From a phage: a stretch of DNA of 64,000 nucleotides. Location of the stretch: assembly GCA_019326865.1 (NCBI GenBank), contig GCA_019326865.1_4101.1; one strand, written 5' to 3'. The notes beneath the pieces are model-generated. The model worked only from the letters and a program-made list of their open reading frames with translations. It was not told the origin of the DNA and ran no database searches. Shown one piece after another: positions 6,822 to 63,861 of this stretch (the first letter of the stretch is position 1; the number at the start of each line of letters is the position of its first letter). The translations under genes were made by a program, and so were the position numbers.

Positions 6822-7141
6822 TTAAAGTAATGTACGCTACTCATATTAAACTACTACTTGTGAAATTTGATTATAATAAAAAACATAATGATTTCTATAC
6901 GTTGATTCGTGATGAAAATTCATTCTCCTTGCGATGCAACAATATACAGTGGACGATAAATGATTTTTCTTCACTTGACGAAGGTGAATTATTTCAAGAA
7001 TCATTAGTTCTTAATAGTAATATAAAAATTGATATAGAAGCTATTAAAAAATACCAGATTTTATTAAACAAAATTATGAATTGTTATCCATGTGAAATAG
7101 GCGGTAATATGCAGTTCAAATCAAAAATGTATGAATTATGA
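6800..7141 (+). CDS. hypothetical protein, FamA
   Basis: 113 aa; 'DEGELFQESLVLN'. Confidence 0.55.
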   Translation: MRREIELVKVMYATHIKLLLVKFDYNKKHNDFYTLIRDENSFSLRCNNIQWTINDFSSLDEGELFQESLVLNSNIKIDIEAIKKYQILLNKIMNCYPCEIGGNMQFKSKMYEL

Positions 7142-7148
7142 GGTTTAT

Positions 7149-7685
7149 ATGTTAGATGAAAAAATGAACGCTGGAACTCAATATAATCATCTTAAGTTGG
7201 ATACATTTGAATCAGCTATCAGTACTGCACAAGATATTATCGATATTATTAAGTACATTAAAGAAAATAAGTTAAAATGTGTGAAAACACCCGAACGTAC
7301 AATGTATAAAGATGACTGTATTCACGTATCTGTTGTTAATCCAAAAGATAAGGATGGTAATAGAGATTTCTATAATAACAGTGAGCAGTTCGAATGTGAA
7401 TATGATCCAGAATTCAGAGGCGGTTTCATGTGTTACAGTATGAAGGATACCTCACACATTGAGATACGTTCATCTAAAGGTGGCATACGTACATTAGAGT
7501 TCATTGATATAGTTTTAAATCAGGAATACTACTTTCAACTATCATTATTGTTTCCTGCATACGATTTAGGAGTTCTATTCATGTATAAGTACTTTTATGA
7601 GCACTTGAATGAAGACTTCTATCTGGACTTAGAAGATTACCAATTAGTTTGGGAAGAAATGGTAGAACTTCGCAACCACCCTTGA
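7149..7685 (+). CDS. hypothetical protein, FamA
   Basis: ATG 7149 after GAGG; 'NQEYYFQLSLLF...FYLDLEDY'. Confidence 0.6.
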   Translation: MLDEKMNAGTQYNHLKLDTFESAISTAQDIIDIIKYIKENKLKCVKTPERTMYKDDCIHVSVVNPKDKDGNRDFYNNSEQFECEYDPEFRGGFMCYSMKDTSHIEIRSSKGGIRTLEFIDIVLNQEYYFQLSLLFPAYDLGVLFMYKYFYEHLNEDFYLDLEDYQLVWEEMVELRNHP

Positions 7686-7711
7686 CACCCACCGATTCTT
7701 TGTGATATAAT
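7682..7711 (+). promoter_or_regulatory. sigma70-like promoter (TTGACA-18-TGATATAAT)
   Basis: -35 TTGACA 7682-7687; extended -10 TGATATAAT 7703-7711; 33 nt upstream of CDS 7745. Confidence 0.6.
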
Positions 7712-7744
7712 CCCTTTATATTAATTTTAAAGGGTTATAACACA

Positions 7745-8221
7745 ATGTCAAACGAACTCACATTCACCAATGCACAAAAGATAGCAAAAGACATTATCAG
7801 GGTTTATAAATTCCTTGCGAATGTTACTGAAGATTTTTTAATTGATAAAAATAAAGTTATTAAGCGAAATGGATACCTTTCCTTTATGGATGGGTTGCTC
7901 TATAGTTCAGATGAGTCAGCTTGTAGTATTAGAGTACTTGATACTGTACCAAGTGGTGATTTTATTTCATACCATTTTCCAAGTTCAGATAAGTTCAAAT
8001 ACTACAATAGTATTCTCATAGCAGAAGACTTTGATACGATTGTAATTAACACTGAAGAAGAGTTCTTCCAGTACAGTACTGTGTACCCAGAGAGGATTGT
8101 TTTCAGTTCAGTGATTTACACTACCCTTAAAAATGAACTAAATTCCGATAGTGATCATTTCTACTTGGACCTGAATAATATCGATTGTATTATTGAGTAC
8201 ATGGAGAAAAATGGTTTATGA
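7745..8221 (+). CDS. hypothetical protein, FamA
   Basis: 158 aa; 'EEEFFQYSTVYPE...HFYLDL'; sigma70-like promoter at 7682-7711. Confidence 0.7.
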   Translation: MSNELTFTNAQKIAKDIIRVYKFLANVTEDFLIDKNKVIKRNGYLSFMDGLLYSSDESACSIRVLDTVPSGDFISYHFPSSDKFKYYNSILIAEDFDTIVINTEEEFFQYSTVYPERIVFSSVIYTTLKNELNSDSDHFYLDLNNIDCIIEYMEKNGL

Positions 8222-8721
8222 TTACTACAGAATATGATTACAATAGTGTCCTTGAATTTGCAGAAAATATATATCGTATTGCAAAGGAGTTCAGAAGTCC
8301 TGAGCCGTTTGGTGGTATGTTCGAATACGATGAGTTTAGTTCATCAAAAGGAAGACTTGCATTTACTAATGGTAGAGGTAATCAAATCTACACAGAGTAC
8401 TTTGATGACAATGACTTTCATCACAAAGCCGAATACATTTCATATTGCCCTGGGTCTGATTTGAAGATTCATATTGAAAGAGATATAGAAAATGTATTTG
8501 TTCCATATACTGATTTAGTCTTCATGTCAGAGGAAATGTACTTTCAGGAATCATTGATTCATGATACAAAAGTACTTAATACTATATTATTATATGGTAC
8601 ACTACTTAATCATTACAAATACAATCAAAGATTCTTTTTAGATTTAGTAGTATACCATCAATGTGTGGATTATTTGAATGCAAAATCAGACAACAATTCA
8701 GTACATGACCGATGGTTCTGA
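8218..8721 (+). CDS. hypothetical protein, FamA
   Basis: 167 aa; 'SEEMYFQESLIHD...RFFLDL'; ATGA overlap. Confidence 0.65.
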   Translation: MITTEYDYNSVLEFAENIYRIAKEFRSPEPFGGMFEYDEFSSSKGRLAFTNGRGNQIYTEYFDDNDFHHKAEYISYCPGSDLKIHIERDIENVFVPYTDLVFMSEEMYFQESLIHDTKVLNTILLYGTLLNHYKYNQRFFLDLVVYHQCVDYLNAKSDNNSVHDRWF

Positions 8722-51938: not shown

Positions 51939-51947
51939 GGATTGCGT

Positions 51948-52700
51948 ATGATATCAGAAAAATTTATAAGTAATGAGGGAAACAAGAGATTACTTATTAT
52001 CTCAGGAGCAGGTCTTTCCGTTGAAAGTGGGATGGAGCCATTTCGATTTGATGATGGCTTATGGGATACATTTAAAATTAATGACGTATGTAATATTGCA
52101 AATTTAGATACAAAATATCATGTTGTTCATTCGTTTTATAACACACTGCGTGTTAAACTGGGTCAATGTGAACCAAATGCAATGCATTATTTTATAAAAT
52201 CCTTAGAGGACCAATATGGTGATTGTTTTCTTCATATGACCTCCAATATGGATGATCTTTATACACGTATTGGTGGCAAAGAACTAAAACTTCATGGTAA
52301 TTTATGTGAAGTGATAGAAAATTATAGTATTAATGGTGATGATTATAACATTGTTAACTGTGGTTATGAGCCATATATACCAAAACATGATGTTTTTGCT
52401 AAACCAAATGTAGTGATGATTGGTGAATATCACCGTTATGTTGATGGTGTTCGTTTGCCAATATATGAAGAAAGAAATAATGTTTTAAAAACACTTAATG
52501 AAAACGATACTGTGATTGTTATTGGAAGTAGTGATACAGTACTTGTGTGGTCCAGATTAGCTGCGGCATTACCCTGTTATAGCGTTAATGTTAACATTCG
52601 TAAAAATGATAATGATTTTCTGTTCAATGAAAAAATTATTCAACCAGCTACCAAAGCAATACCACAATTAGAGACTATAATTAAGGAACGTATGAAATGA
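51948..52700 (+). CDS. Sir2-family (sirtuin-like) NAD-dependent enzyme
   Basis: 'ISGAGLSVESGMEPFR', 'TSNMDDL', catalytic 'LHGNL', 'PNVVMIGEY'; ATG after AAGG. Confidence 0.75.
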   Translation: MISEKFISNEGNKRLLIISGAGLSVESGMEPFRFDDGLWDTFKINDVCNIANLDTKYHVVHSFYNTLRVKLGQCEPNAMHYFIKSLEDQYGDCFLHMTSNMDDLYTRIGGKELKLHGNLCEVIENYSINGDDYNIVNCGYEPYIPKHDVFAKPNVVMIGEYHRYVDGVRLPIYEERNNVLKTLNENDTVIVIGSSDTVLVWSRLAAALPCYSVNVNIRKNDNDFLFNEKIIQPATKAIPQLETIIKERMK

Positions 52701-53248
52701 GTGTTAAAGAAGTTCCCTTTGGTGAATATGGTTCACGTGCCAATTTTGTATTTTGCTATTTCTTTGCAAGAAAATGTAACCCTTACGAAAATTACGAATT
52801 GAATGATATACCAGAAGTAAATTTAGTATTACTTCAATTACGTTGGGATGGCCTTCTAGGGGGATGTGGTGGGACAGTTGAAAGTACTGATATCTCACTA
52901 GAAGATGCGTTACGTCGTGAAATTCAAGAAGAGATGGATTACAATATTTTTGTTTCCCATCTTCGACCACTTAAAACTTTTGAAATTTACCCAGGTGCAA
53001 ACAGTCATAGTTTTAGCTATGAAGTAACCTATGATGAGTTGAAACACATTAGAGATGGATACACTAATGCTAAACATGCGAGTGCTGAAGTGGCTGGTGT
53101 AAATTTATGTCATATTTCTCGTTATTCTAAGGGACAAAATCGAGAAGCGGGATATAATAATCTTATGACTCAGAACTTCATTGGTACAGCAAAACAAGAA
53201 TTGGAGTATCTGGTTCAAAAAGAAAACTTACTAATTAGTTATCTATAG
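52697..53248 (+). CDS. Nudix hydrolase-like protein
   Basis: Nudix-box-like 'GGCGGTVESTDISLEDALRREIQEEMDY'; ATGA overlap with Sir2. Confidence 0.6.
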   Translation: MSVKEVPFGEYGSRANFVFCYFFARKCNPYENYELNDIPEVNLVLLQLRWDGLLGGCGGTVESTDISLEDALRREIQEEMDYNIFVSHLRPLKTFEIYPGANSHSFSYEVTYDELKHIRDGYTNAKHASAEVAGVNLCHISRYSKGQNREAGYNNLMTQNFIGTAKQELEYLVQKENLLISYL

Positions 53249-53257
53249 GAGTTTAAC

Positions 53258-53578
53258 ATGTCTTACTCAATGTTTTTGGATGATATCCGTGATGCAAATC
53301 TATATTATCCAAACCAAGATATGGTGGTATGTCGTGACTTTAAAAGTGCATGTGAATATGTTATTGAAAATGGAATTCCAGCATTTGTATCATTCGACCA
53401 TGACTTGGGTGATGTGAGCGAAGACGAAAAGACTGGATATTCTTTTGCTAAGTTTCTTATTGATTATATGTTTGATAATAATATTAAAGAACCGTTTGAG
53501 TACTTTGTTCACAGTAGTAATCCTGTTGGTAAAATTAATATTGAAACATACTTAAACAATGGGTTTAACGCATTATGA
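53258..53578 (+). CDS. hypothetical protein (possible receiver-like domain)
   Basis: 106 aa; acidic 'FLDDIRD' and 'SFDHDLGD' pattern; assignment tentative. Confidence 0.45.
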   Translation: MSYSMFLDDIRDANLYYPNQDMVVCRDFKSACEYVIENGIPAFVSFDHDLGDVSEDEKTGYSFAKFLIDYMFDNNIKEPFEYFVHSSNPVGKINIETYLNNGFNAL

Positions 53579-53937: not shown

Positions 53938-55377
53938 ATGAAAAAATATACAATTGACACAAACGTACTACTATCTGATCCAAATGCGTCTGTTGCTTTT
54001 GATGGTGCTGCAATCATTCTACCATTTACAGTACTGGAAGAATTGGATTCGATTAAGAGTCGCAATGTTGATGTTTCACGTGATGCTCGTGTTGCGATTC
54101 GTAACATTGAAGCAATTATTGCAGAGGCATCACATAATGAGATTAGTTGTACTGGTGTTAATATTGCTGATGTTCATACCAATATGAATCCTGATAGCAA
54201 ATTGTTTGTTATTACAACCGAAGAAGCTGAGGCACTAATTCGTACTAAAGGTTCAGACGAGAAAGTTCAAACCCTTCTTAAAAGTACTGTACCTGATGAT
54301 AAAATTATTCTGGTTGCTTTAGCAACCGAATCAGTACTGGTAACTCGTGATATCAACATGCGTATCAAAGCACTAAGTTATGGTGTCGAGGTACAAGACT
54401 ATCGTCATGATATTGTTATTGGTGATAGTGATTTGATGCACATTGGTCAACATCATTTGGAACTCAATTTTTGGGATGTATATAGCAATTTAGCAAATAC
54501 AAATATTAAAACTGAACAAATTGGTCGTCGATTGTATCATTACATTCCTAAAAGCTTGATTGGTCATTTACTTCCACAAAATCTATGCATTGGTGATTAT
54601 CTATATGATGATGCTGATGTATTATTTGTATATGAAGGCCAATCAGCCATTGAGGAAGATGATGGCACACTAACACCAGAAGATATTTTGGTATTCCAAG
54701 ACATTGGTCAATCTGTAGCTTTGCGTGCTAAAGTATGGGATATTAAAGCAAAGAATATTCAACAAGCACTTGCAATCAACAGTATTCTCGATCCTGATGT
54801 ACACCTAACAGTGCTGCTAGGTTCTGCTGGAACTGGCAAAACATTAATTACGATTGCTACTGCACTAGAGTTAGTACTGGAAAAACGCAAATACGACCGT
54901 ATTATCTTCTCTAAAACACAAGATTCACAGTTTGAAGATATAGGATTCTTGCCAGGTTCTGAGACAGAGAAAGTTATCCCATTCTGTGGACCTGCAATTG
55001 ATGCTCTTGAGTATCTTCATAAAGATGATGTATCACCACAAGGTAGCATCGAAGAGATTCTCAAACGTAACGTGATGCAATTTAAAGCATTGAACTTTAT
55101 TCGTGGTCGTTCTTTTGCCAATACAATTCTAATTGTGGATGAAGCACAGAACTTAACACCAGCCCAGTTAAAAACTGTCTTGACAAGAGCCGGAGAAAAC
55201 TGTAAAGTAATCATACTTGGTAACCTAGCACAGATTGATAACAAGTTTATCAGTCCAGTAAACAGTGGTTTGACATATGTAACTGAAAAATTCAAGGATT
55301 GGAGTGGTTGTCGTATCATTGAATTAGAAGGTGTTGTTCGTTCACCACTTGCTGAATTTGCTGAAGAAAATATGTAA
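53938..55377 (+). CDS. phoH: PhoH-like ATPase with N-terminal PIN domain
   Basis: PIN 'YTIDTNVLLSDP'; Walker A 'GSAGTGKT'; Walker B 'LIVDEAQN'. Confidence 0.85.
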   Translation: MKKYTIDTNVLLSDPNASVAFDGAAIILPFTVLEELDSIKSRNVDVSRDARVAIRNIEAIIAEASHNEISCTGVNIADVHTNMNPDSKLFVITTEEAEALIRTKGSDEKVQTLLKSTVPDDKIILVALATESVLVTRDINMRIKALSYGVEVQDYRHDIVIGDSDLMHIGQHHLELNFWDVYSNLANTNIKTEQIGRRLYHYIPKSLIGHLLPQNLCIGDYLYDDADVLFVYEGQSAIEEDDGTLTPEDILVFQDIGQSVALRAKVWDIKAKNIQQALAINSILDPDVHLTVLLGSAGTGKTLITIATALELVLEKRKYDRIIFSKTQDSQFEDIGFLPGSETEKVIPFCGPAIDALEYLHKDDVSPQGSIEEILKRNVMQFKALNFIRGRSFANTILIVDEAQNLTPAQLKTVLTRAGENCKVIILGNLAQIDNKFISPVNSGLTYVTEKFKDWSGCRIIELEGVVRSPLAEFAEENM

Positions 55378-55860: not shown

Positions 55861-56418
55861 ATGTTTTTTGACCAAACATTTACGTTGTATCACGATTCTG
55901 GTAAAGTTGAGATTATTGATAATCTGCTACTGTACATTTCTGAGCATGAAGGGATAGACCGTTTTCATAGTAAGATGAAATTCGATTTAGCTGAATTCAA
56001 CAAAAAGAATCGTGAAACTTTTTGGAAGAACCGATTCTATTATGAAATGTTCCCAGAAAGGTTTGTTGGTTATTATCTTTGTACTGAGAAAGGTTTATTA
56101 GTATCTCCAGATTTACTTATGGGTGAATACATGGTTCTCTATAATGAGTACTGGAAAAATAAACGTAACGCTCGTGACATTGAATGGAGACACAAGCGTT
56201 CGTACATGTACAAACACAACCACTCCCGATACAAACGTCCTAAGACTCAACAAGAGCGTCGTATGGCGTGTGCGGTATTGAAGGATGAGGGGGAACCTGA
56301 TATACGTGGTAAGCGTAAAATGCGTTCAATACCTTCATACTGGGATGATATCAGAACAAGACACAGTACTGGCTGGAAATACAGTACTAAGCGTAAAAAA
56401 CAATACAAAGGGAGCTAA
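55861..56418 (+). CDS. hypothetical protein with basic C-terminus
   Basis: 185 aa; AGGAG RBS; terminator overlaps stop. Confidence 0.55.
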   Translation: MFFDQTFTLYHDSGKVEIIDNLLLYISEHEGIDRFHSKMKFDLAEFNKKNRETFWKNRFYYEMFPERFVGYYLCTEKGLLVSPDLLMGEYMVLYNEYWKNKRNARDIEWRHKRSYMYKHNHSRYKRPKTQQERRMACAVLKDEGEPDIRGKRKMRSIPSYWDDIRTRHSTGWKYSTKRKKQYKGS

Positions 56419-56433
56419 TGCTCCCTATTTTAT
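56410..56433 (+). terminator. rho-independent terminator
   Basis: GGGAGC-TAAT-GCTCCC then TATTTTA; overlaps stop of 55861-56418. Confidence 0.6.
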
Positions 56434-56445
56434 AGGTTAAACTTT

Positions 56446-56775
56446 ATGAGCAAAATTAATGTTGATGTAGTTATTGGTTATATTGAAATTGAACCGTGTA
56501 GTATTGATACAATGATTGACACTCTTAGTAAGTATCGTTTAGAGTACAGGGGACATATTAGTATTTCGCCCGACGGTGGTTACGGTGGATTCCATGGATA
56601 CAATGTAATTTGGACCAGAGAAGAAACTGACGAAGAATATAATACACGAATTGAAGCTGAATCTAAAAGACGTGAAGAAATTGATCGTCAAGAAATGAAA
56701 CAATTAATGAACAAGAAATCATTAAGTTCCGAAGAGAAAGAAAAACTTCTAACATACATCAAGGATTACATGTAA
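56446..56775 (+). CDS. hypothetical protein
   Basis: 109 aa ORF. Confidence 0.5.
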   Translation: MSKINVDVVIGYIEIEPCSIDTMIDTLSKYRLEYRGHISISPDGGYGGFHGYNVIWTREETDEEYNTRIEAESKRREEIDRQEMKQLMNKKSLSSEEKEKLLTYIKDYM

Positions 56776-57614
56776 TGAAAAATGTAACTCAAGAAAAGAT
56801 TCTGTACCTTGCAAAGTACAATGGTGGTTTCAATATCATTAGCCGTGAGTATCGTGGTAATTTGGCTAAGTTGATTGACAGCTTGTTAGAATTCGATTTC
56901 ATTAAATGGGAAACTAATGAACTTTGGTATGAATATGCTGGTCAGAAATGGGAAAGTGATTATGATAATGCAACACATACCTATACTATCACCAAAGCAG
57001 GTGAAGTTCGTCTATTGATTTATCGTCTAGCATATGCTTATAAGAATCATAAAGATACTGATAAGCACCAACGTAGGATTGATGAATTACAGCAAGCACT
57101 TCAACAATATGATTTAGATATTAATAATTTCAAAGATTGTTGTTCTAAGAATGAACTTAAAGCAATTAATGATTTCAATAGTAAGACCACAAATGTTGAA
57201 TTAACTGATTCTGTTGACTTAGAACTTTCACCATACAATACCAATCCTACTTGGGGAAGAACTCTTACTAATATCAATGATATTGATTTCAGCCAACCAG
57301 CACTGAATAATATGTTCCAAATGAGTTCAATGCTGGGTGCTAAAGGTTTTGATGCGTCAAGAACTGATGATTATGTTCTTCGTAAAATAAATGAAGAACT
57401 TGGTGAAATGACACTTGAAATGAACATCCGTGATGGGTTATCATATAAAGAAGCAGGTAAAGATGGTGTCAAAGGTGAAGCTGTAGATCTTTGCATTTGT
57501 GCACTTGACATGTTCGCTTTGCAATGCGATAATATGAGTCCAGAAGAGATGGAACGTGAGTTCCTTACTTACATGAATGTTAAACTAGCCAAATGGCGTA
57601 AATCAATTCAATAG
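56775..57614 (+). CDS. protein with MazG-like NTP pyrophosphohydrolase domain
   Basis: C-terminal 'INEELGEMTLEM...KGEAVDLCICALDMFA' (EExxE...ExxD pattern). Confidence 0.55.
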   Translation: MKNVTQEKILYLAKYNGGFNIISREYRGNLAKLIDSLLEFDFIKWETNELWYEYAGQKWESDYDNATHTYTITKAGEVRLLIYRLAYAYKNHKDTDKHQRRIDELQQALQQYDLDINNFKDCCSKNELKAINDFNSKTTNVELTDSVDLELSPYNTNPTWGRTLTNINDIDFSQPALNNMFQMSSMLGAKGFDASRTDDYVLRKINEELGEMTLEMNIRDGLSYKEAGKDGVKGEAVDLCICALDMFALQCDNMSPEEMEREFLTYMNVKLAKWRKSIQ

Positions 57615-57622
57615 GTTTTTTA

Positions 57623-58594
57623 ATGAAAACTAAAATTATTTCTGAACAAAAAATCGGCAATACTACAGTACTGAATCTTGAAGTTCAAGATCTTAGTAAT
57701 GTTCGTTCTCTTACTGTTTGTACTCAGAGAGATGATTTGACTGATTTTTATAACTCCGAATACATGTCAGAAGAACATTGGGATATGGGATGGTTAGACG
57801 GTAGTAGTTATATCAGTTCTCGTTATAGTTTTGGTTCTCATGAAAATATTGAACAAGTAAAAAATGAGTATATTAAACTCAGTGATACTATTGAAATGAA
57901 AGAAGAAGATTGTGTAGAACTTTTCATTTTTGAATTCGATGCAGGAAATGGTAATTCATTACTAGTAAGTAATATTGAAGAACATTTAATGTATCATGAT
58001 ATTGAAGATGTAGATTTTAAAAGTATTAAAAATGTTGTTCATATGGTTGGTGGTAGTATTACTGATGATTCAGATATCGGTCATAATATTTCACTGTGCT
58101 TAATTTCTCATCCAAAAACTCGTGGTTTTAAAGTTCCACAAGATGAAACTTACGTGTTTGAAACTGCTGATGAAGGAATTTATCCTTGGAATGATTATGT
58201 AGAATACTATGGTCATTTCTGTTCTGATATAAAAGAACTGAAAAAAGGCGAACGATATTTTGATATGTTCCGTGCTGCACAGCGTTTAGTACTGAATAAT
58301 ACTGAACTATTTCCTGAACGCGGTGAAGAAAATATGATTGATATTATCTTCAAGAACTATGATTATGTGCAGAACATTCCTGATAATGTACATTTGGAAT
58401 ATGTTCACGGTTCTTCAAACAAATTCTATAATATTGAATTGAATGCTCCAGTGTGTGAAGTAATCATTGAGTACGGTGCTATTGGTAAAACCAGTACTAC
58501 CGATGGTGAAGAATTCGAAACTATTGAAGAAGCACGTAAGTTCTTCGAGAAGAAAGTAATTTCCAAAATTAAAAGTGGTTATATCCCAAAATGA
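57623..58594 (+). CDS. protein with C-terminal WGR-like domain
   Basis: 'SSNKFYNIELNAPVCEVIIEYGAIGKTSTTDGEEFETIEEARKFFEKKVISKIKSGY' fits WGR pattern. Confidence 0.5.
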   Translation: MKTKIISEQKIGNTTVLNLEVQDLSNVRSLTVCTQRDDLTDFYNSEYMSEEHWDMGWLDGSSYISSRYSFGSHENIEQVKNEYIKLSDTIEMKEEDCVELFIFEFDAGNGNSLLVSNIEEHLMYHDIEDVDFKSIKNVVHMVGGSITDDSDIGHNISLCLISHPKTRGFKVPQDETYVFETADEGIYPWNDYVEYYGHFCSDIKELKKGERYFDMFRAAQRLVLNNTELFPERGEENMIDIIFKNYDYVQNIPDNVHLEYVHGSSNKFYNIELNAPVCEVIIEYGAIGKTSTTDGEEFETIEEARKFFEKKVISKIKSGYIPK

Positions 58595-58604
58595 GAAAAA
58601 TATC

Positions 58605-58838
58605 ATGAAAAATATATTCATTACATTAACAATATTTGTATCCATTATTCTCTGTGGTTGTGCTCCTAAAGTTGATGAGATGGATGCTGAAATCATCCGT
58701 CAAGGTTTAACAAAACTAAATCACCAAGGAACACTATACGCATGTCATACTATGCGTCATGGGCAAGATCTTAATCTCATGTGCAGGAAGATTGTGAACC
58801 GCAAACGTCTTAATACTATTCCGAAGGATGCACAATGA
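58605..58838 (+). CDS. putative small lipoprotein
   Basis: signal plus lipobox-like 'FVSIILCGCAPK'; start chosen at ATG 58605. Confidence 0.45.
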   Translation: MKNIFITLTIFVSIILCGCAPKVDEMDAEIIRQGLTKLNHQGTLYACHTMRHGQDLNLMCRKIVNRKRLNTIPKDAQ

Positions 58839-59005
58839 AAGAAGTAATTGGCTACAAATGTAAAAATTGTGGCAAAGATATGGGTAAGCATTCAGTACAA
58901 GGTATGGCTTGTCCAAATCCAGGACGTGGTAATTTTAGAGGGTTCAGCACTGAAAAGTCTTACGAACCGGATCATACCAAACCTGTAATGGGTTATAAAT
59001 TATGA
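58835..59005 (+). CDS. possible small zinc-ribbon protein (56 aa)
   Basis: ATGA-coupled at both ends; 'CKNCGK...CPNPG'; below ORF-track cutoff. Confidence 0.35.
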   Translation: MKEVIGYKCKNCGKDMGKHSVQGMACPNPGRGNFRGFSTEKSYEPDHTKPVMGYKL

Positions 59006-59361
59006 GTGATTATGTAGCATTTCTTCATCGCTTTGGAGAAGCTAAAGAAAAACATATTATCCGTATGCCATTATATGGTGAAAAAGACTGGTACAAAAGT
59101 ACTATAAGTGTAGGTGCATTTCGTGACCGTGAAGCTGGATTCTTTCTGAGTAAGCAACATGAACGAGAGGTACTTTGCTCACTGTGGCGTTTGGATGAAT
59201 GGGATAGTGAGAACGTAAGAACTGCTGAATCAATGCTGGCTATTGTTGGTATTGCGAACTATCAGCACCCATATGACCTATTACCTACATTTGAACATGC
59301 TTCTTTGTTTGACTTTTACAAAGCAGTAGGGTATGATTATACAAAGAAACGTTACATTTAA
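59002..59361 (+). CDS. hypothetical protein
   Basis: 119 aa; terminator downstream. Confidence 0.5.
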   Translation: MSDYVAFLHRFGEAKEKHIIRMPLYGEKDWYKSTISVGAFRDREAGFFLSKQHEREVLCSLWRLDEWDSENVRTAESMLAIVGIANYQHPYDLLPTFEHASLFDFYKAVGYDYTKKRYI

Positions 59362-59364
59362 TAT

Positions 59365-59393
59365 CAGTACTGTCATAGTGGCAGTACTTTTTA
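59365..59393 (+). terminator. rho-independent terminator built on AGTACT motif
   Basis: AGTACTG-TCATAGTGG-CAGTACT then TTTT. Confidence 0.6.
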
Positions 59394-59406: not shown

Positions 59407-60021
59407 ATGACTACATCGGAAAAGTACTGGTGGATTTTGGGTCATCCTAAATTCATAAACAAAGATATGGTTCCAGCTAGGATTGATATAGAACCTCATG
59501 ATGTGTGTCCAATGACAAATCGAATTGAAGATTTCAAAGCATTGAATACAAAGACTCAATTTTGGGTAGAATTTCTTTCACCAATGTATATTGAGCAAGA
59601 CGACGAATGGGTACAAGCACATGATTATGAGTTAGATTGCGGTGGTGATACTTATGATGAGGCAATTGACGCACTATACAAAAATGTGCTAAACACTTAT
59701 GGTGATTACACCCAACAAGAAGCAGACGATACGTTTAATAAGATCCATGCAGCCATTTCTACATCATCAATTTACAATCCAGCAAAAACAGTTTGGGAAG
59801 AACGTCACGGGTGGAGTTCATCTGTAATTGATGCAGAAGCCAAAGAAACAATTCTCGAAGACATAAAAAATATAAAAAGTACAATAGAAGCCTTGCGTGA
59901 ATTTATAAAGTCTTGTACAATAGAACAACAGAAAGAGGCAAAGATGCATTTGGAAAGTGAAGAATGTAAACTTTGGGTTCTAGAGAAATCTATTGAAAAG
60001 GGTATAGACTTAGACTTATGA
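59407..60021 (+). CDS. hypothetical protein
   Basis: ATG 59407 after GGAG; 204 aa. Confidence 0.5.
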   Translation: MTTSEKYWWILGHPKFINKDMVPARIDIEPHDVCPMTNRIEDFKALNTKTQFWVEFLSPMYIEQDDEWVQAHDYELDCGGDTYDEAIDALYKNVLNTYGDYTQQEADDTFNKIHAAISTSSIYNPAKTVWEERHGWSSSVIDAEAKETILEDIKNIKSTIEALREFIKSCTIEQQKEAKMHLESEECKLWVLEKSIEKGIDLDL

Positions 60022-60386
60022 ATAGTAAATTGGAGAAATTAATCGAAGAATTACGCCAGATGCCGCCGATTGAACAAGTAGGTAATTATAAACGGTATCG
60101 TATTATTGCTCGTGCACTTGATAAAAAAGGTCGAGTTCTGGCAACTCGCACCAATTCTTATACACAGACACATCCAGTACAGAAGGGTTTCGCCATCCGT
60201 GCTGGAAGACCACAAGGTGAGTTTCTTCATGCTGAAATTTCATGTTTATTAGCTGCACGTGCTGATGTTCATACTTTGTTGATTGCACGGATAAGTAAAG
60301 ATGGAATTCCTGTTCCAGCCAAGCCTTGTGAGATTTGTACGTTGGCAATAGCAGAATATGGTGTGAAAGAGATTATCCACACATGA
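60018..60386 (+). CDS. cytidine/deoxycytidylate deaminase-fold protein (small, second deaminase)
   Basis: 'LHAEISCL' and 'PCEICTLAI' zinc-binding motifs about 30 aa apart; 122 aa. Confidence 0.65.
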   Translation: MNSKLEKLIEELRQMPPIEQVGNYKRYRIIARALDKKGRVLATRTNSYTQTHPVQKGFAIRAGRPQGEFLHAEISCLLAARADVHTLLIARISKDGIPVPAKPCEICTLAIAEYGVKEIIHT

Positions 60387-61792: not shown

Positions 61793-61896
61793 ACTTGTCA
61801 TAGGGTGTAGTGCAATTGCTGCATATATGATTTTTTCACCTCCAACCAATGTATTACTGCTAATTTGGGCGGTTGTTATATTAGCAGTACTTTAAA

Positions 61897-61918
61897 AGCA
61901 CCTTAGTGGTGCTTTTTA
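61897..61918 (+). terminator. rho-independent terminator
   Basis: AGCACC-TTAGT-GGTGCT then TTTT. Confidence 0.6.
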
Positions 61919-61994: not shown

Positions 61995-62055
61995 ATTGTC
62001 TGGTGATATTAAATATCTTCACCCCCAGATGATTTCAAAATACAAGGAATGTACA

Positions 62056-63861
62056 ATGCAGCTAGATAAATTATATAATGACGTAACGAATTTCCTAAAT
62101 CAGAGTAATACAGATCTCACAAATGAAAATGCGAACAAAGATGCGAAGTGCGTCAATACACACAGGGATTTACTTGCAGGTATCCTATCTAAACATTATT
62201 CACAAGATGTTATCCCAAATGAACTAATGCAGTGGCATAATGATGGTTATGGACATATTCATGATTTAGACTACTATATCAGTCCATTAACCAACTGTTG
62301 CTTAGTCAACTACCCAGATATGCTAAAAAATGGATTTACTATTGGCTGTGCTAAAATTGAAGAACCAAAAAGTTTTAGTGTTGCATGTACAGTACTAACA
62401 CAGATTGTACAAGCTGTAGCTAGTTCACAATACGGAGGTCAATCGTTGGCTCACATTGATGTCGGGTTGGAACCTTACGTTAAAAAGTCATGGTATAAAC
62501 TATTAGAAAAACAAAAGAAATATAATCTAAGTGATGAATACATTGAAGAAGAATTACGAAAAGAAGTATACGATGGATGTCAAACATTACTTTATCAAAC
62601 TAATTCAATGATTAGTACTAATGGTCAAGCTGCATTTATTTCTCTTAGTTTAGGTTTGAATACTTCCAAATTTGGTAAATTAATCACCGAACAGTACTTA
62701 AAAGTTCATGAGAATGGTTTAGGTAAAGATAAGATTACTCCAGTGTTTCCTAAAGTTATTTTCTTTTTACAAGATGGTATAAACATGAATACCAATGATT
62801 GTAATTATGACCTTAAACAGTTAGCTATGCGTTGTGCATCAAAGCGAATCTACCCAGACTTTGTTTCAGTTCCATTAAATCACAAAGTGACGGGAAGTAG
62901 TAGTACTGCGGTAACACCAATGGGTTGTCGTTCATTCTTAGGAAAATGGGAAGATTCAAATGGAAATGAACAATATAACGGTCGCTTCAATTTAGGTGTA
63001 GTTTCTATCAATTTACCACTAATTGCTCTTGAAAGTGCTACAGATGGAGAGTTTTTTGATAAGATAGATGAGCATATGAATATTGCATATCGTGCTCAGA
63101 TGAACCGCGTAGAGCGTTTAAAAGGTACAAAAGCGAAACAGAATCCAATTTTGTTTATGGAAGGTGCATTAGCACGTTTAGATGCAGAAGAAACTATTGA
63201 CAAGCTATTTTACAATGGTTATGCTAGTATTAGTATTGGTTATGTTGGACTTGTTGAATGTTCGGAAATCCTCACTGGTTCTATCAGTAAGGAGTTTTGT
63301 ATGTCAGTACTGAATTATATGAAAGTAAAATGCGATGAGTTTAAAAAAGAAAGTAATATTGCTTTTAGTTTATATGGAACTCCAGCAGAGTCACTTTGTT
63401 ATAAATTTGCACGTTGCATTGAAGCAAAGTATCCGTCTGTTCTAAAACGTAATTATATTACAAATTCATTCCATCAACCAGTATGGGTTGAAAGTTCTGC
63501 TTTTGAAAAGTGGGATTATGAGGAAAACTTTGCTTATCTAAGCAATGGTGGTAATATTAGCTATGTCGAAACACCAAACTTAACAAACAACATTCAAGCA
63601 CTTGAAACATTAATCAATTATGCCTATAAAAAAATTCCATATTTTGGAATAAACCAGCCTATAGATCATTGTCATAAATGTAATTTTGAAGGTGAATTCA
63701 GCGTCGATAAAAACGGTTTCCACTGTCCAGTTTGTAATAATAGAGATGAAAAATCTATGTCAGTTATTCGAAGAGTTAGCGGATATCTTAGTGCACCAAA
63801 TAGTCGCCCATTCAATAAAGGAAAGCAAGATGAAGTGATTCAGAGAATTCGCCATTTATAA
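62056..63861 (+). CDS. nrdD: anaerobic ribonucleoside-triphosphate reductase
   Basis: ATG 62056 after AAGGA; 'DLTNENANKD...RDLLAGILSKH' parallels T4 NrdD; glycyl-radical 'RRVSGYL'; C-terminal 'CHKC...CPVC'; uninterrupted. Confidence 0.9.
   Translation: MQLDKLYNDVTNFLNQSNTDLTNENANKDAKCVNTHRDLLAGILSKHYSQDVIPNELMQWHNDGYGHIHDLDYYISPLTNCCLVNYPDMLKNGFTIGCAKIEEPKSFSVACTVLTQIVQAVASSQYGGQSLAHIDVGLEPYVKKSWYKLLEKQKKYNLSDEYIEEELRKEVYDGCQTLLYQTNSMISTNGQAAFISLSLGLNTSKFGKLITEQYLKVHENGLGKDKITPVFPKVIFFLQDGINMNTNDCNYDLKQLAMRCASKRIYPDFVSVPLNHKVTGSSSTAVTPMGCRSFLGKWEDSNGNEQYNGRFNLGVVSINLPLIALESATDGEFFDKIDEHMNIAYRAQMNRVERLKGTKAKQNPILFMEGALARLDAEETIDKLFYNGYASISIGYVGLVECSEILTGSISKEFCMSVLNYMKVKCDEFKKESNIAFSLYGTPAESLCYKFARCIEAKYPSVLKRNYITNSFHQPVWVESSAFEKWDYEENFAYLSNGGNISYVETPNLTNNIQALETLINYAYKKIPYFGINQPIDHCHKCNFEGEFSVDKNGFHCPVCNNRDEKSMSVIRRVSGYLSAPNSRPFNKGKQDEVIQRIRHL

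Follow-up and report, generated by a model that had tools for sequence, protein, structure and literature searches.

Analysis of a 64,000-nt stretch of phage DNA (the window) indicated that the two adjacent genes at 56775-57614 and 57623-58594 are probably (roughly 70%) separate side-by-side genes and not a two-component system, the first coding for a MazG-type enzyme and the second for an accessory protein with a WGR domain. The preliminary description of this DNA had placed both ORFs correctly, the motifs it quoted are present, and both genes are conserved. Its domain calls held as well, whereas its T4 context and its linkage to NAD or nucleotide-signal biology were not supported by the genome identity and by the distribution of the genes. 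The features of the region are as follows:

56409-56426, plus strand: terminator-like GC hairpin at the upstream edge of a six-gene block (7-bp stem with 5 GC pairs, T-run)
56446-56775, plus strand: 109-aa ORF, phrog_25568 (function unknown), with its stop overlapping the start of the MazG-like gene
56775-57614, plus strand: MazG-like protein, 279 aa, built from an N-terminal alpha/beta and helical region and a C-terminal all-alpha module of predicted NTP-pyrophosphohydrolase type, joined by a disordered linker
56775-57191, plus strand: N-terminal region of the MazG-like protein, aa 1-139 (in the AF2 model, small alpha/beta domain at aa 1-72 and helices at 74-139)
57303-57611, plus strand: MazG/YpjD-type four-helix NTP-PPase module, aa 177-279 (E207-E208-x-x-E211...E215, E235-x-x-D238)
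57010-58648 (approximate): variable cassette, ~1.6 kb, replaced in phage 121Q by ~0.6 kb of unrelated sequence (DNA alignment)
57623-58594, plus strand: WGR-domain protein, 323 aa, accessory gene in the Asteriusvirus group
57623-58372, plus strand: orphan N-terminal domain of the WGR protein, aa 1-250 (seven-strand alpha/beta part and helical part at aa 175-250)
58388-58591, plus strand: WGR domain, aa 256-323, 2ra8/MolR-like subtype, with Y284-G285-A replacing W-G-R
59366-59388, plus strand: terminator-like hairpin closing the six-gene block on its downstream side (10-bp stem, then TTTTT)

The region was 98.3% identical to Escherichia phage UE-S1 (genus Asteriusvirus) and 87-95% identical to PBECO4, slurp01, phAPEC6, 121Q and other ~350-kb Asteriusvirus jumbo phages. 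Judged by this identity, the source genome is that of an Asteriusvirus jumbo coliphage and not of a T4-type phage, so that the T4 relative assumed earlier as the context was not borne out. The GC content across the window ranged from 0.30 to 0.37, that of the phage being ~33%.

Terminator-like sites were enriched in the region (11 observed vs. 2.5±1.6 expected), and a scan for sigma-70 promoters gave 36 sites relative to 32±5 expected, with no excess over chance. The segment from about 56427 to 59388 is best explained as one compact transcription block, bounded by hairpins and holding both genes. The stop codon of the 109-aa ORF and the start codon of the MazG-like gene share the sequence TAATG, which suggests translational coupling of the two. 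In relatives (loci L004-L010) a 115-116-aa gene was located directly 5' of the MazG-like gene and was likened to the 109-aa ORF by position alone. The 389-aa CDS annotated in UE-S1, which joins the 109-aa and 279-aa genes, was ruled out as a true fusion and represents a 1-nt frameshift artefact. The next hairpin-bounded block downstream contains a dCMP deaminase gene (60018-60386), and NrdD is encoded at 61996-63861.

Homologues of the 279-aa protein formed 64 full-length clusters, with identity reaching down to 37-38%. Its AlphaFold model (pLDDT 84) comprised an alpha/beta part at aa 1-72, which may be winged-helix-like, helices extending to aa 139, a disordered linker at aa 140-163 and four C-terminal helices. 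The N-terminal region (aa 1-139) had no match in Pfam or the PDB, and relatives P0081-P0092 combined the same C-terminal module with a different N-terminus. In PHROGs, the full-length protein corresponded to phrog_15672, a family of unknown function, and aa 192-278 matched phrog_1247, "MazG-like pyrophosphatase", with E=5e-16. Pfam and NCBIfam scans of the protein gave no significant match, including to any MazG or PRA-PH model; the best Pfam score within the family was PRA-PH at E=0.13 in one member.

The C-terminal ~100 aa were extremely conserved in the family alignment (RTEDYVLRKxNEELGEMTLEMNI...GKDGVKGEAVDLAICAMDMFALQ), and tblastn detected the module in 118 phage records. Among these were Rak2-like jumbo phages and phages of the Aeromonas CC2-like type, and the module also formed standalone proteins of ~100 aa, which carry the annotation MazG-like pyrophosphatase in KVP40, VH7D, Tenacibaculum phages PTm1 and pT24, Pseudomonas phage NoPa and Sinorhizobium phage phiN3. 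Thirteen residues were invariant among 10 diverse phage proteins: R196, E208, E211, D230, G231, G234, E235, A236, D238, D245, K270, K273 and W274. Both metal-binding acidic motifs of the fold, EExxE and ExxD, were found (E207-E208-L-G-E211...E215 and E235-A-V-D238), and the module forms a compact four-helix bundle within the ~90-110 residues typical of the fold. A broadened profile of the module (A5) matched Bacillus subtilis YpjD (2gta, E=1.5e-4) and a nucleotide pyrophosphohydrolase (5ie9, E=1.7e-3) over almost its entire length, with the acidic motifs aligned to EELGEL and E..D of YpjD; a full-length family profile (A2) gave no matches in the PDB. The MazG-type assignment made earlier is sound with respect to fold and motifs, the catalytic chemistry being predicted.

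The closest known proteins are those of the YpjD/MazG family (2gta, 5ie9; HisE, RS21-C6/DCTPP1, iMazG) and PHROG 1247, exemplified by KVP40.0035. In comparison with YpjD and the KVP40 protein, the protein studied here carries an extra ~175-aa N-terminal region made of the alpha/beta part, helices and disordered linker, and it is too divergent from the YpjD/MazG families to be recognized by any Pfam model. It is likely to hydrolyse (d)NTPs of the nucleotide pool as a Mg2+-dependent pyrophosphohydrolase. The acidic cluster E208/E211/E235/D238 would bind Mg2+ and the module would cleave (d)NTP to (d)NMP and PPi.

The role of such an activity in infection is a more tentative matter. The KVP40 homologue is encoded four genes downstream of thymidylate synthase, and a thymidylate kinase gene is present in the neighborhood in Erwinia phage Hallingskeid. 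E. coli has a GC content of ~51%, and to our knowledge the only phage MazG that has been assayed is the cyanophage enzyme. That enzyme prefers dGTP and dCTP, and its suggested purpose is to make use of the nucleotides of a GC-rich host (Rihtman et al. 2019, PMC6850273). The protein described here is likewise a predicted phage-encoded MazG-type pyrophosphohydrolase, and the logic of a GC-rich host would fit a ~33% GC phage growing on E. coli; however, the cyanophage enzyme is an assayed member of the canonical MazG family, whereas the present one is a divergent YpjD-like module known from its sequence. The low GC content, the nearby dCMP deaminase gene and the cyanophage preference together make rebalancing of the dCTP/dGTP pool the most economical hypothesis, which, drawn from gene neighborhood and the cyanophage precedent, is given somewhat less than even odds. 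The enzyme might then sanitise or rebalance the dNTP pool for the ~33% GC genome, for example by converting dCTP and dGTP to dNMPs, and the dNMP released could feed the dCMP deaminase of the downstream block.

For the second gene, the WGR domain proposed at the C-terminus was confirmed by Pfam WGR (PF05406), which matched aa 256-322 with 41.1 bits against a gathering threshold of 22 (E=1.9e-10). Homologues of the 323-aa protein formed 28 full-length clusters, down to 37-38% identity, with PF05406 detected in 28/28; three distant relatives (P0093-P0095) passed the threshold as well. Of the distant members P0093 and P0095, one adjoins a PurZ-like gene. The C-terminal part shows the WGR fold, an antiparallel sheet followed by a C-terminal helix. 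The literal Trp-Gly-Arg triad is absent: its first two positions are taken by the invariant Y284 and G285, and in place of the Arg stands Ala or Gly, or Pro in the case of two distant members. The RWGRVG segment of PARP3 aligned with EYGAVG of the phage family, the equivalent in 2ra8 being NYGKLG, and this type of motif, lacking the Arg, assigns the phage proteins to the bacterial 2ra8-like subtype.

The nearest representatives of this subtype are Bacteroides fragilis Q64V53 (2ra8) and MolR-like bacterial WGR proteins. In 2ra8, however, the WGR domain is N-terminal and is followed by a different domain, whereas in the phage protein it stands at the C-terminus behind the orphan domain. Standalone phage WGR proteins of ~100 aa, such as that of Agrobacterium phage Atu_ph07, consist of the WGR domain alone, and the DNA ligases of giant viruses and ASFV carry an N-terminal WGR-like domain fused to the ligase; neither type possesses the 250-aa N-terminal domain.

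The WGR fold is best known as the DNA-break sensor of PARPs, and in PARP1 its Trp and Arg contact the DNA end. By analogy with the domains of PARP1-3, the phage WGR module may be a handle that recognizes nucleic acid or a partner and thereby targets or regulates the N-terminal domain inside the infected cell, in a rigid two-domain accessory protein with the N-terminal domain packed against the C-terminal 2ra8-type WGR; targeting to nucleic acid as such is put at about one chance in three. The WGR domain has a net charge between -3 and +5, i.e., it is about neutral and not basic, and the whole protein is acidic (-24 to -33). This acidity is ordinary for the phage (rank 14 of 88 window ORFs, z=-1.0), and a DNA-mimic reading based on a net charge of about -29 was dropped as non-specific.

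The N-terminal 250 aa, left unassigned before, indeed have no assignable family. The AF2 model of the whole protein was confident (pLDDT 91.3, pTM 0.90) and contained a beta-alpha-beta-beta-alpha-beta unit at aa 66-144, and no match to the domain was found in Pfam, the PDB or the viral structures of BFVD. A search of 1.84e9 representative proteins with the domain profile returned nine matches, seven of them genuine: four belonged to the family itself and three were distant relatives of 342-354 aa, each also ending in a WGR domain. The remaining two, the giant proteins P0096 and P0097, were spurious, resulting from summed near-zero matches to FN3-type repeats. Pattern scans of IMG/VR and GTDB with the domain alignment gave no relatives. 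As the relatives are few and every member, the distant ones included, is fused to WGR, the region represents an orphan domain always joined to a WGR domain. G60, G71, N117, G144, D148, D149 and P164 were invariant across all members and Y63, G110 and K170 nearly so; the polar cluster N117/D148/D149/K170 would suit a site that binds a ligand or metal.

That this domain could be the catalytic part of a divergent PARP-like ADP-ribosyltransferase or of a nucleotidyltransferase would accord with the best-known occurrence of WGR, with the WGR domain carried by a phage protein whose annotation is NAD+ ADP-ribosyltransferase (BFVD A0A8D9PE85), and with the invariant Asp-Asp pair and the beta-alpha-beta-beta-alpha-beta unit. 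Such a fold, suggested in the preliminary description as something to look for, was not present in the profile and structure searches, which detected no PARP/ART, PARP_reg or nucleotidyltransferase fold in the WGR protein. PARP1/2/3 couple the WGR break sensor to an HD-ART catalytic module, whereas the phage protein lacks both ART and HD, has the reverse domain order, is devoid of the Arg and has a WGR domain that is not basic. A catalytic domain of this kind is therefore considered highly improbable.

The two genes lie on the same strand, 8 nt apart, in one hairpin-bounded block, and the order MazG-like to WGR was retained in relatives to ~38% identity, sometimes with an ORF of 65 or 165 aa in between. 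In 121Q, replacement of the cassette, which runs from the C-terminal two-thirds of the MazG-like gene through the entire WGR gene into the first codons of the gene that follows, leaves a short gene, so that the MazG half is lacking together with WGR as a single unit. These observations would favor a functional two-gene module, i.e., a nucleotide-signal or NAD-linked sensor-effector pair, perhaps acting with the products of the Sir2 and Nudix genes. The distribution of the genes largely refutes such a module, since all four combinations of presence and absence occur. Both genes are present in the window, UE-S1 and TH47 and both are missing in 121Q. Three metagenomic jumbo-phage loci (L009-L011) had the MazG-like gene and no WGR gene, as seen directly at the locus, and comparison of hit lists showed that RaK2, K64-1, Munch, GAP32, CBB and others have the MazG module but do not figure among the 18 phage records containing a WGR-protein homologue.

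A third, recombinant arrangement was found in PBECO4, phAPEC6 and slurp01, in which an intact WGR gene stands beside a decayed MazG remnant. The order there is a 216-aa gene of the 121Q type without the EExxE helix, the C-terminal MazG remnant, broken by in-frame stops and by a frameshift, and then the intact WGR gene, which is under purifying selection in these three phages (dN/dS of the WGR gene 0.20-0.25 among close relatives). This arrangement ruled out the conclusion, drawn from 121Q, that the two genes are lost together and are hence linked. In addition, for the two distant WGR-family members that were checked (P0093 and P0095), the upstream neighbors were not MazG. An obligate two-gene system was thus not upheld by co-occurrence across genomes: the adjacency of the two genes is synteny, and the four combinations mark the WGR gene as accessory, its variable locus lying next to a widespread MazG-like gene.

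The nucleotide-signal or NAD-linked biology proposed earlier together with Sir2 and Nudix found no support. The Sir2 and Nudix genes are located upstream, separated from the block by two terminator-like hairpins; Nudix is kept in the WGR-less relatives (L009-L011); and no NAD-utilising fold was found in either the MazG-like or the WGR protein. Nothing observed ties Sir2 or Nudix to either protein, and a sensor-effector module formed by the two genes is regarded as very unlikely.

Alternatively, the WGR protein could be a non-enzymatic host-takeover or counter-defence factor using WGR as a protein-interaction surface, for example to tie up a host protein of DNA repair or defence. The variable locus fits this, as homologues were present in 17 Escherichia phage records relative to 41 records matching the region, and so do the apparent restriction of the family to jumbo phages, the acidity of the protein, the missing WGR Arg and the small number of invariant polar residues. 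The protein was also absent from the phAPEC6 virion proteome, in which the nearby PIN-PhoH was present (PMC7247149, Table 1), and a WGR-like domain combined with HEAT/ARM repeats is known from a protein of retron type XIII systems (PMC7736814). However, the acidity is, as stated, unexceptional in this phage, the N117/D148/D149/K170 cluster rather resembles a site for a ligand or metal, and no known anti-defence protein was matched in BFVD or PADLOC. Scans of both proteins and their sub-domains with Pfam, NCBIfam and PADLOC detected nothing apart from WGR; PADLOC returned nothing for the MazG-like protein and a single, not significant match for the WGR protein (WGR_XIII, E=0.038, over the WGR domain). 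A purely non-enzymatic factor is a serious rival, though rated at about one chance in five.

Within the preferred reading of a MazG-type enzyme beside an accessory WGR protein, a bolder proposal may be formulated for the latter. The N-terminal domain could be a previously unseen ligand-binding or catalytic domain centered on N117/D148/D149/K170 and rigidly coupled to the WGR sensor, which would reproduce the PARP-like design of a sensor switching an effector with a new effector, in an accessory host-takeover or counter-defence factor of Rak2/Asterius-type jumbo phages. This is offered as speculation, with a low probability.

The MazG-like gene is one more divergent phage nucleotide-pool enzyme and as such ordinary. 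Two annotation points are corrected by the analysis: the CDS of UE-S1 that a frameshift had fused, and the MazG-like genes labelled "hypothetical" throughout Rak2-like phages. As predicted from the sequence, the combination of orphan domain and WGR is a new architecture, already flagged in databases, where several GenBank records label the 323-aa gene "WGR domain-containing protein"; a literature search found no paper discussing the protein. It is the more useful lead, since a WGR fold is fused here to a confidently folded domain without recognizable relatives; this domain occurs in a small set of jumbo phages only, and genomes that are almost identical differ in having gained or lost it. The phages 121Q without WGR, PBECO4 with WGR and UE-S1 with both genes can serve as natural, isogenic-like comparators, and the contribution of the WGR protein to infection or to evasion of host defence is therefore directly testable.

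In slurp01, an Asteriusvirus relative, a remnant of the MazG C-terminal module (about 2001-2190 of its compared locus, L016), pseudogenised with in-frame stops and a frameshift, was located between a 121Q-type short gene and an intact WGR gene, and an additional 126-aa ORF was found 3' of the WGR gene (L016 3169-3549). The same arrangement of the pseudogenised remnant was present in PBECO4/phAPEC6/UB/BF17-type phages. The position of the remnant between the 121Q-type gene and the intact WGR gene, together with the extra ORF, indicates that recombination between 121Q-type and UE-S1-type genomes took place at this locus. The features of the window considered here were as follows.

51942-52700, Sir2-family gene (PF02146, E=4e-20)
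52697-53248, Nudt16-like Nudix gene
53258-53578, gene of ~106 aa (phrog_1479), 3' of the Nudix gene
53938-55377, PIN_4 and PhoH fusion, 479 aa
55738-55759, 56409-56426, 59366-59388 and 61894-61916, strong terminator-like hairpins
58575-58838, 87-aa ORF with a lipoprotein-like signal (…IILCGC…)

When the window was compared with 121Q, the downstream boundary of recombination (~58648) fell within the signal peptide of the 87-aa ORF, whose orthologues in K64-1 and Muenster are annotated as outer membrane lipoproteins. The 6.8-kb region was organised in short gene blocks delimited by terminator-like hairpins, of which 11 were observed versus 2.5 expected; the palindromic hairpin at 56409-56426 was called on both strands.

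In UE-S1, a single 389-aa GenBank CDS (UES1_434, L001 6647-7816) joins the 109-aa and 279-aa genes. The fusion arises by a 1-nt frameshift near codon 91, with …NKKIIKFRRERK… in place of …NKKSLSSEEKEK…, and the frameshift probably reflects a mistake in sequencing or annotation.

In Rak2-like relatives (L003, L004, L005, L006, L010 and L011), a GroES (Cpn10) gene was located a few kb or less from the MazG-like gene, and in some of them a tyrosyl-tRNA synthetase gene was also within a few kb; neither gene was found in the 50-62 kb part of the window. At L013, a PurZ-like adenylosuccinate synthetase gene (7121-8350, minus strand; phrog_1211, E=4.5e-57) adjoined that of P0095, a distant WGR-family member, and its neighbours had no PHROG matches. 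Because of the PurZ-like gene, this phage may use 2-aminoadenine (Z) DNA.

The PIN_4 and PhoH fusion protein has an orthologue in phAPEC6, gp341c, detected in the virion proteome with 8 peptides and 31% coverage (PMC7247149, Table 1). The presence of gp341c in the virion raises the possibility that phage particles carry this RNase/ATPase-like protein and inject it.

The ~106-aa gene, followed by a small membrane protein gene, has positional counterparts in relatives with a cREC_REC Pfam match; L009-L011, loci with the MazG-like gene and no adjacent WGR gene, retain both the Nudix and the cREC_REC-type genes. The Sir2-family and Nudix genes overlap by 4 nt, which suggests a coupled pair, and the occurrence of such a pair in a phage may have a bearing on NAD+ or ADP-ribose metabolism.
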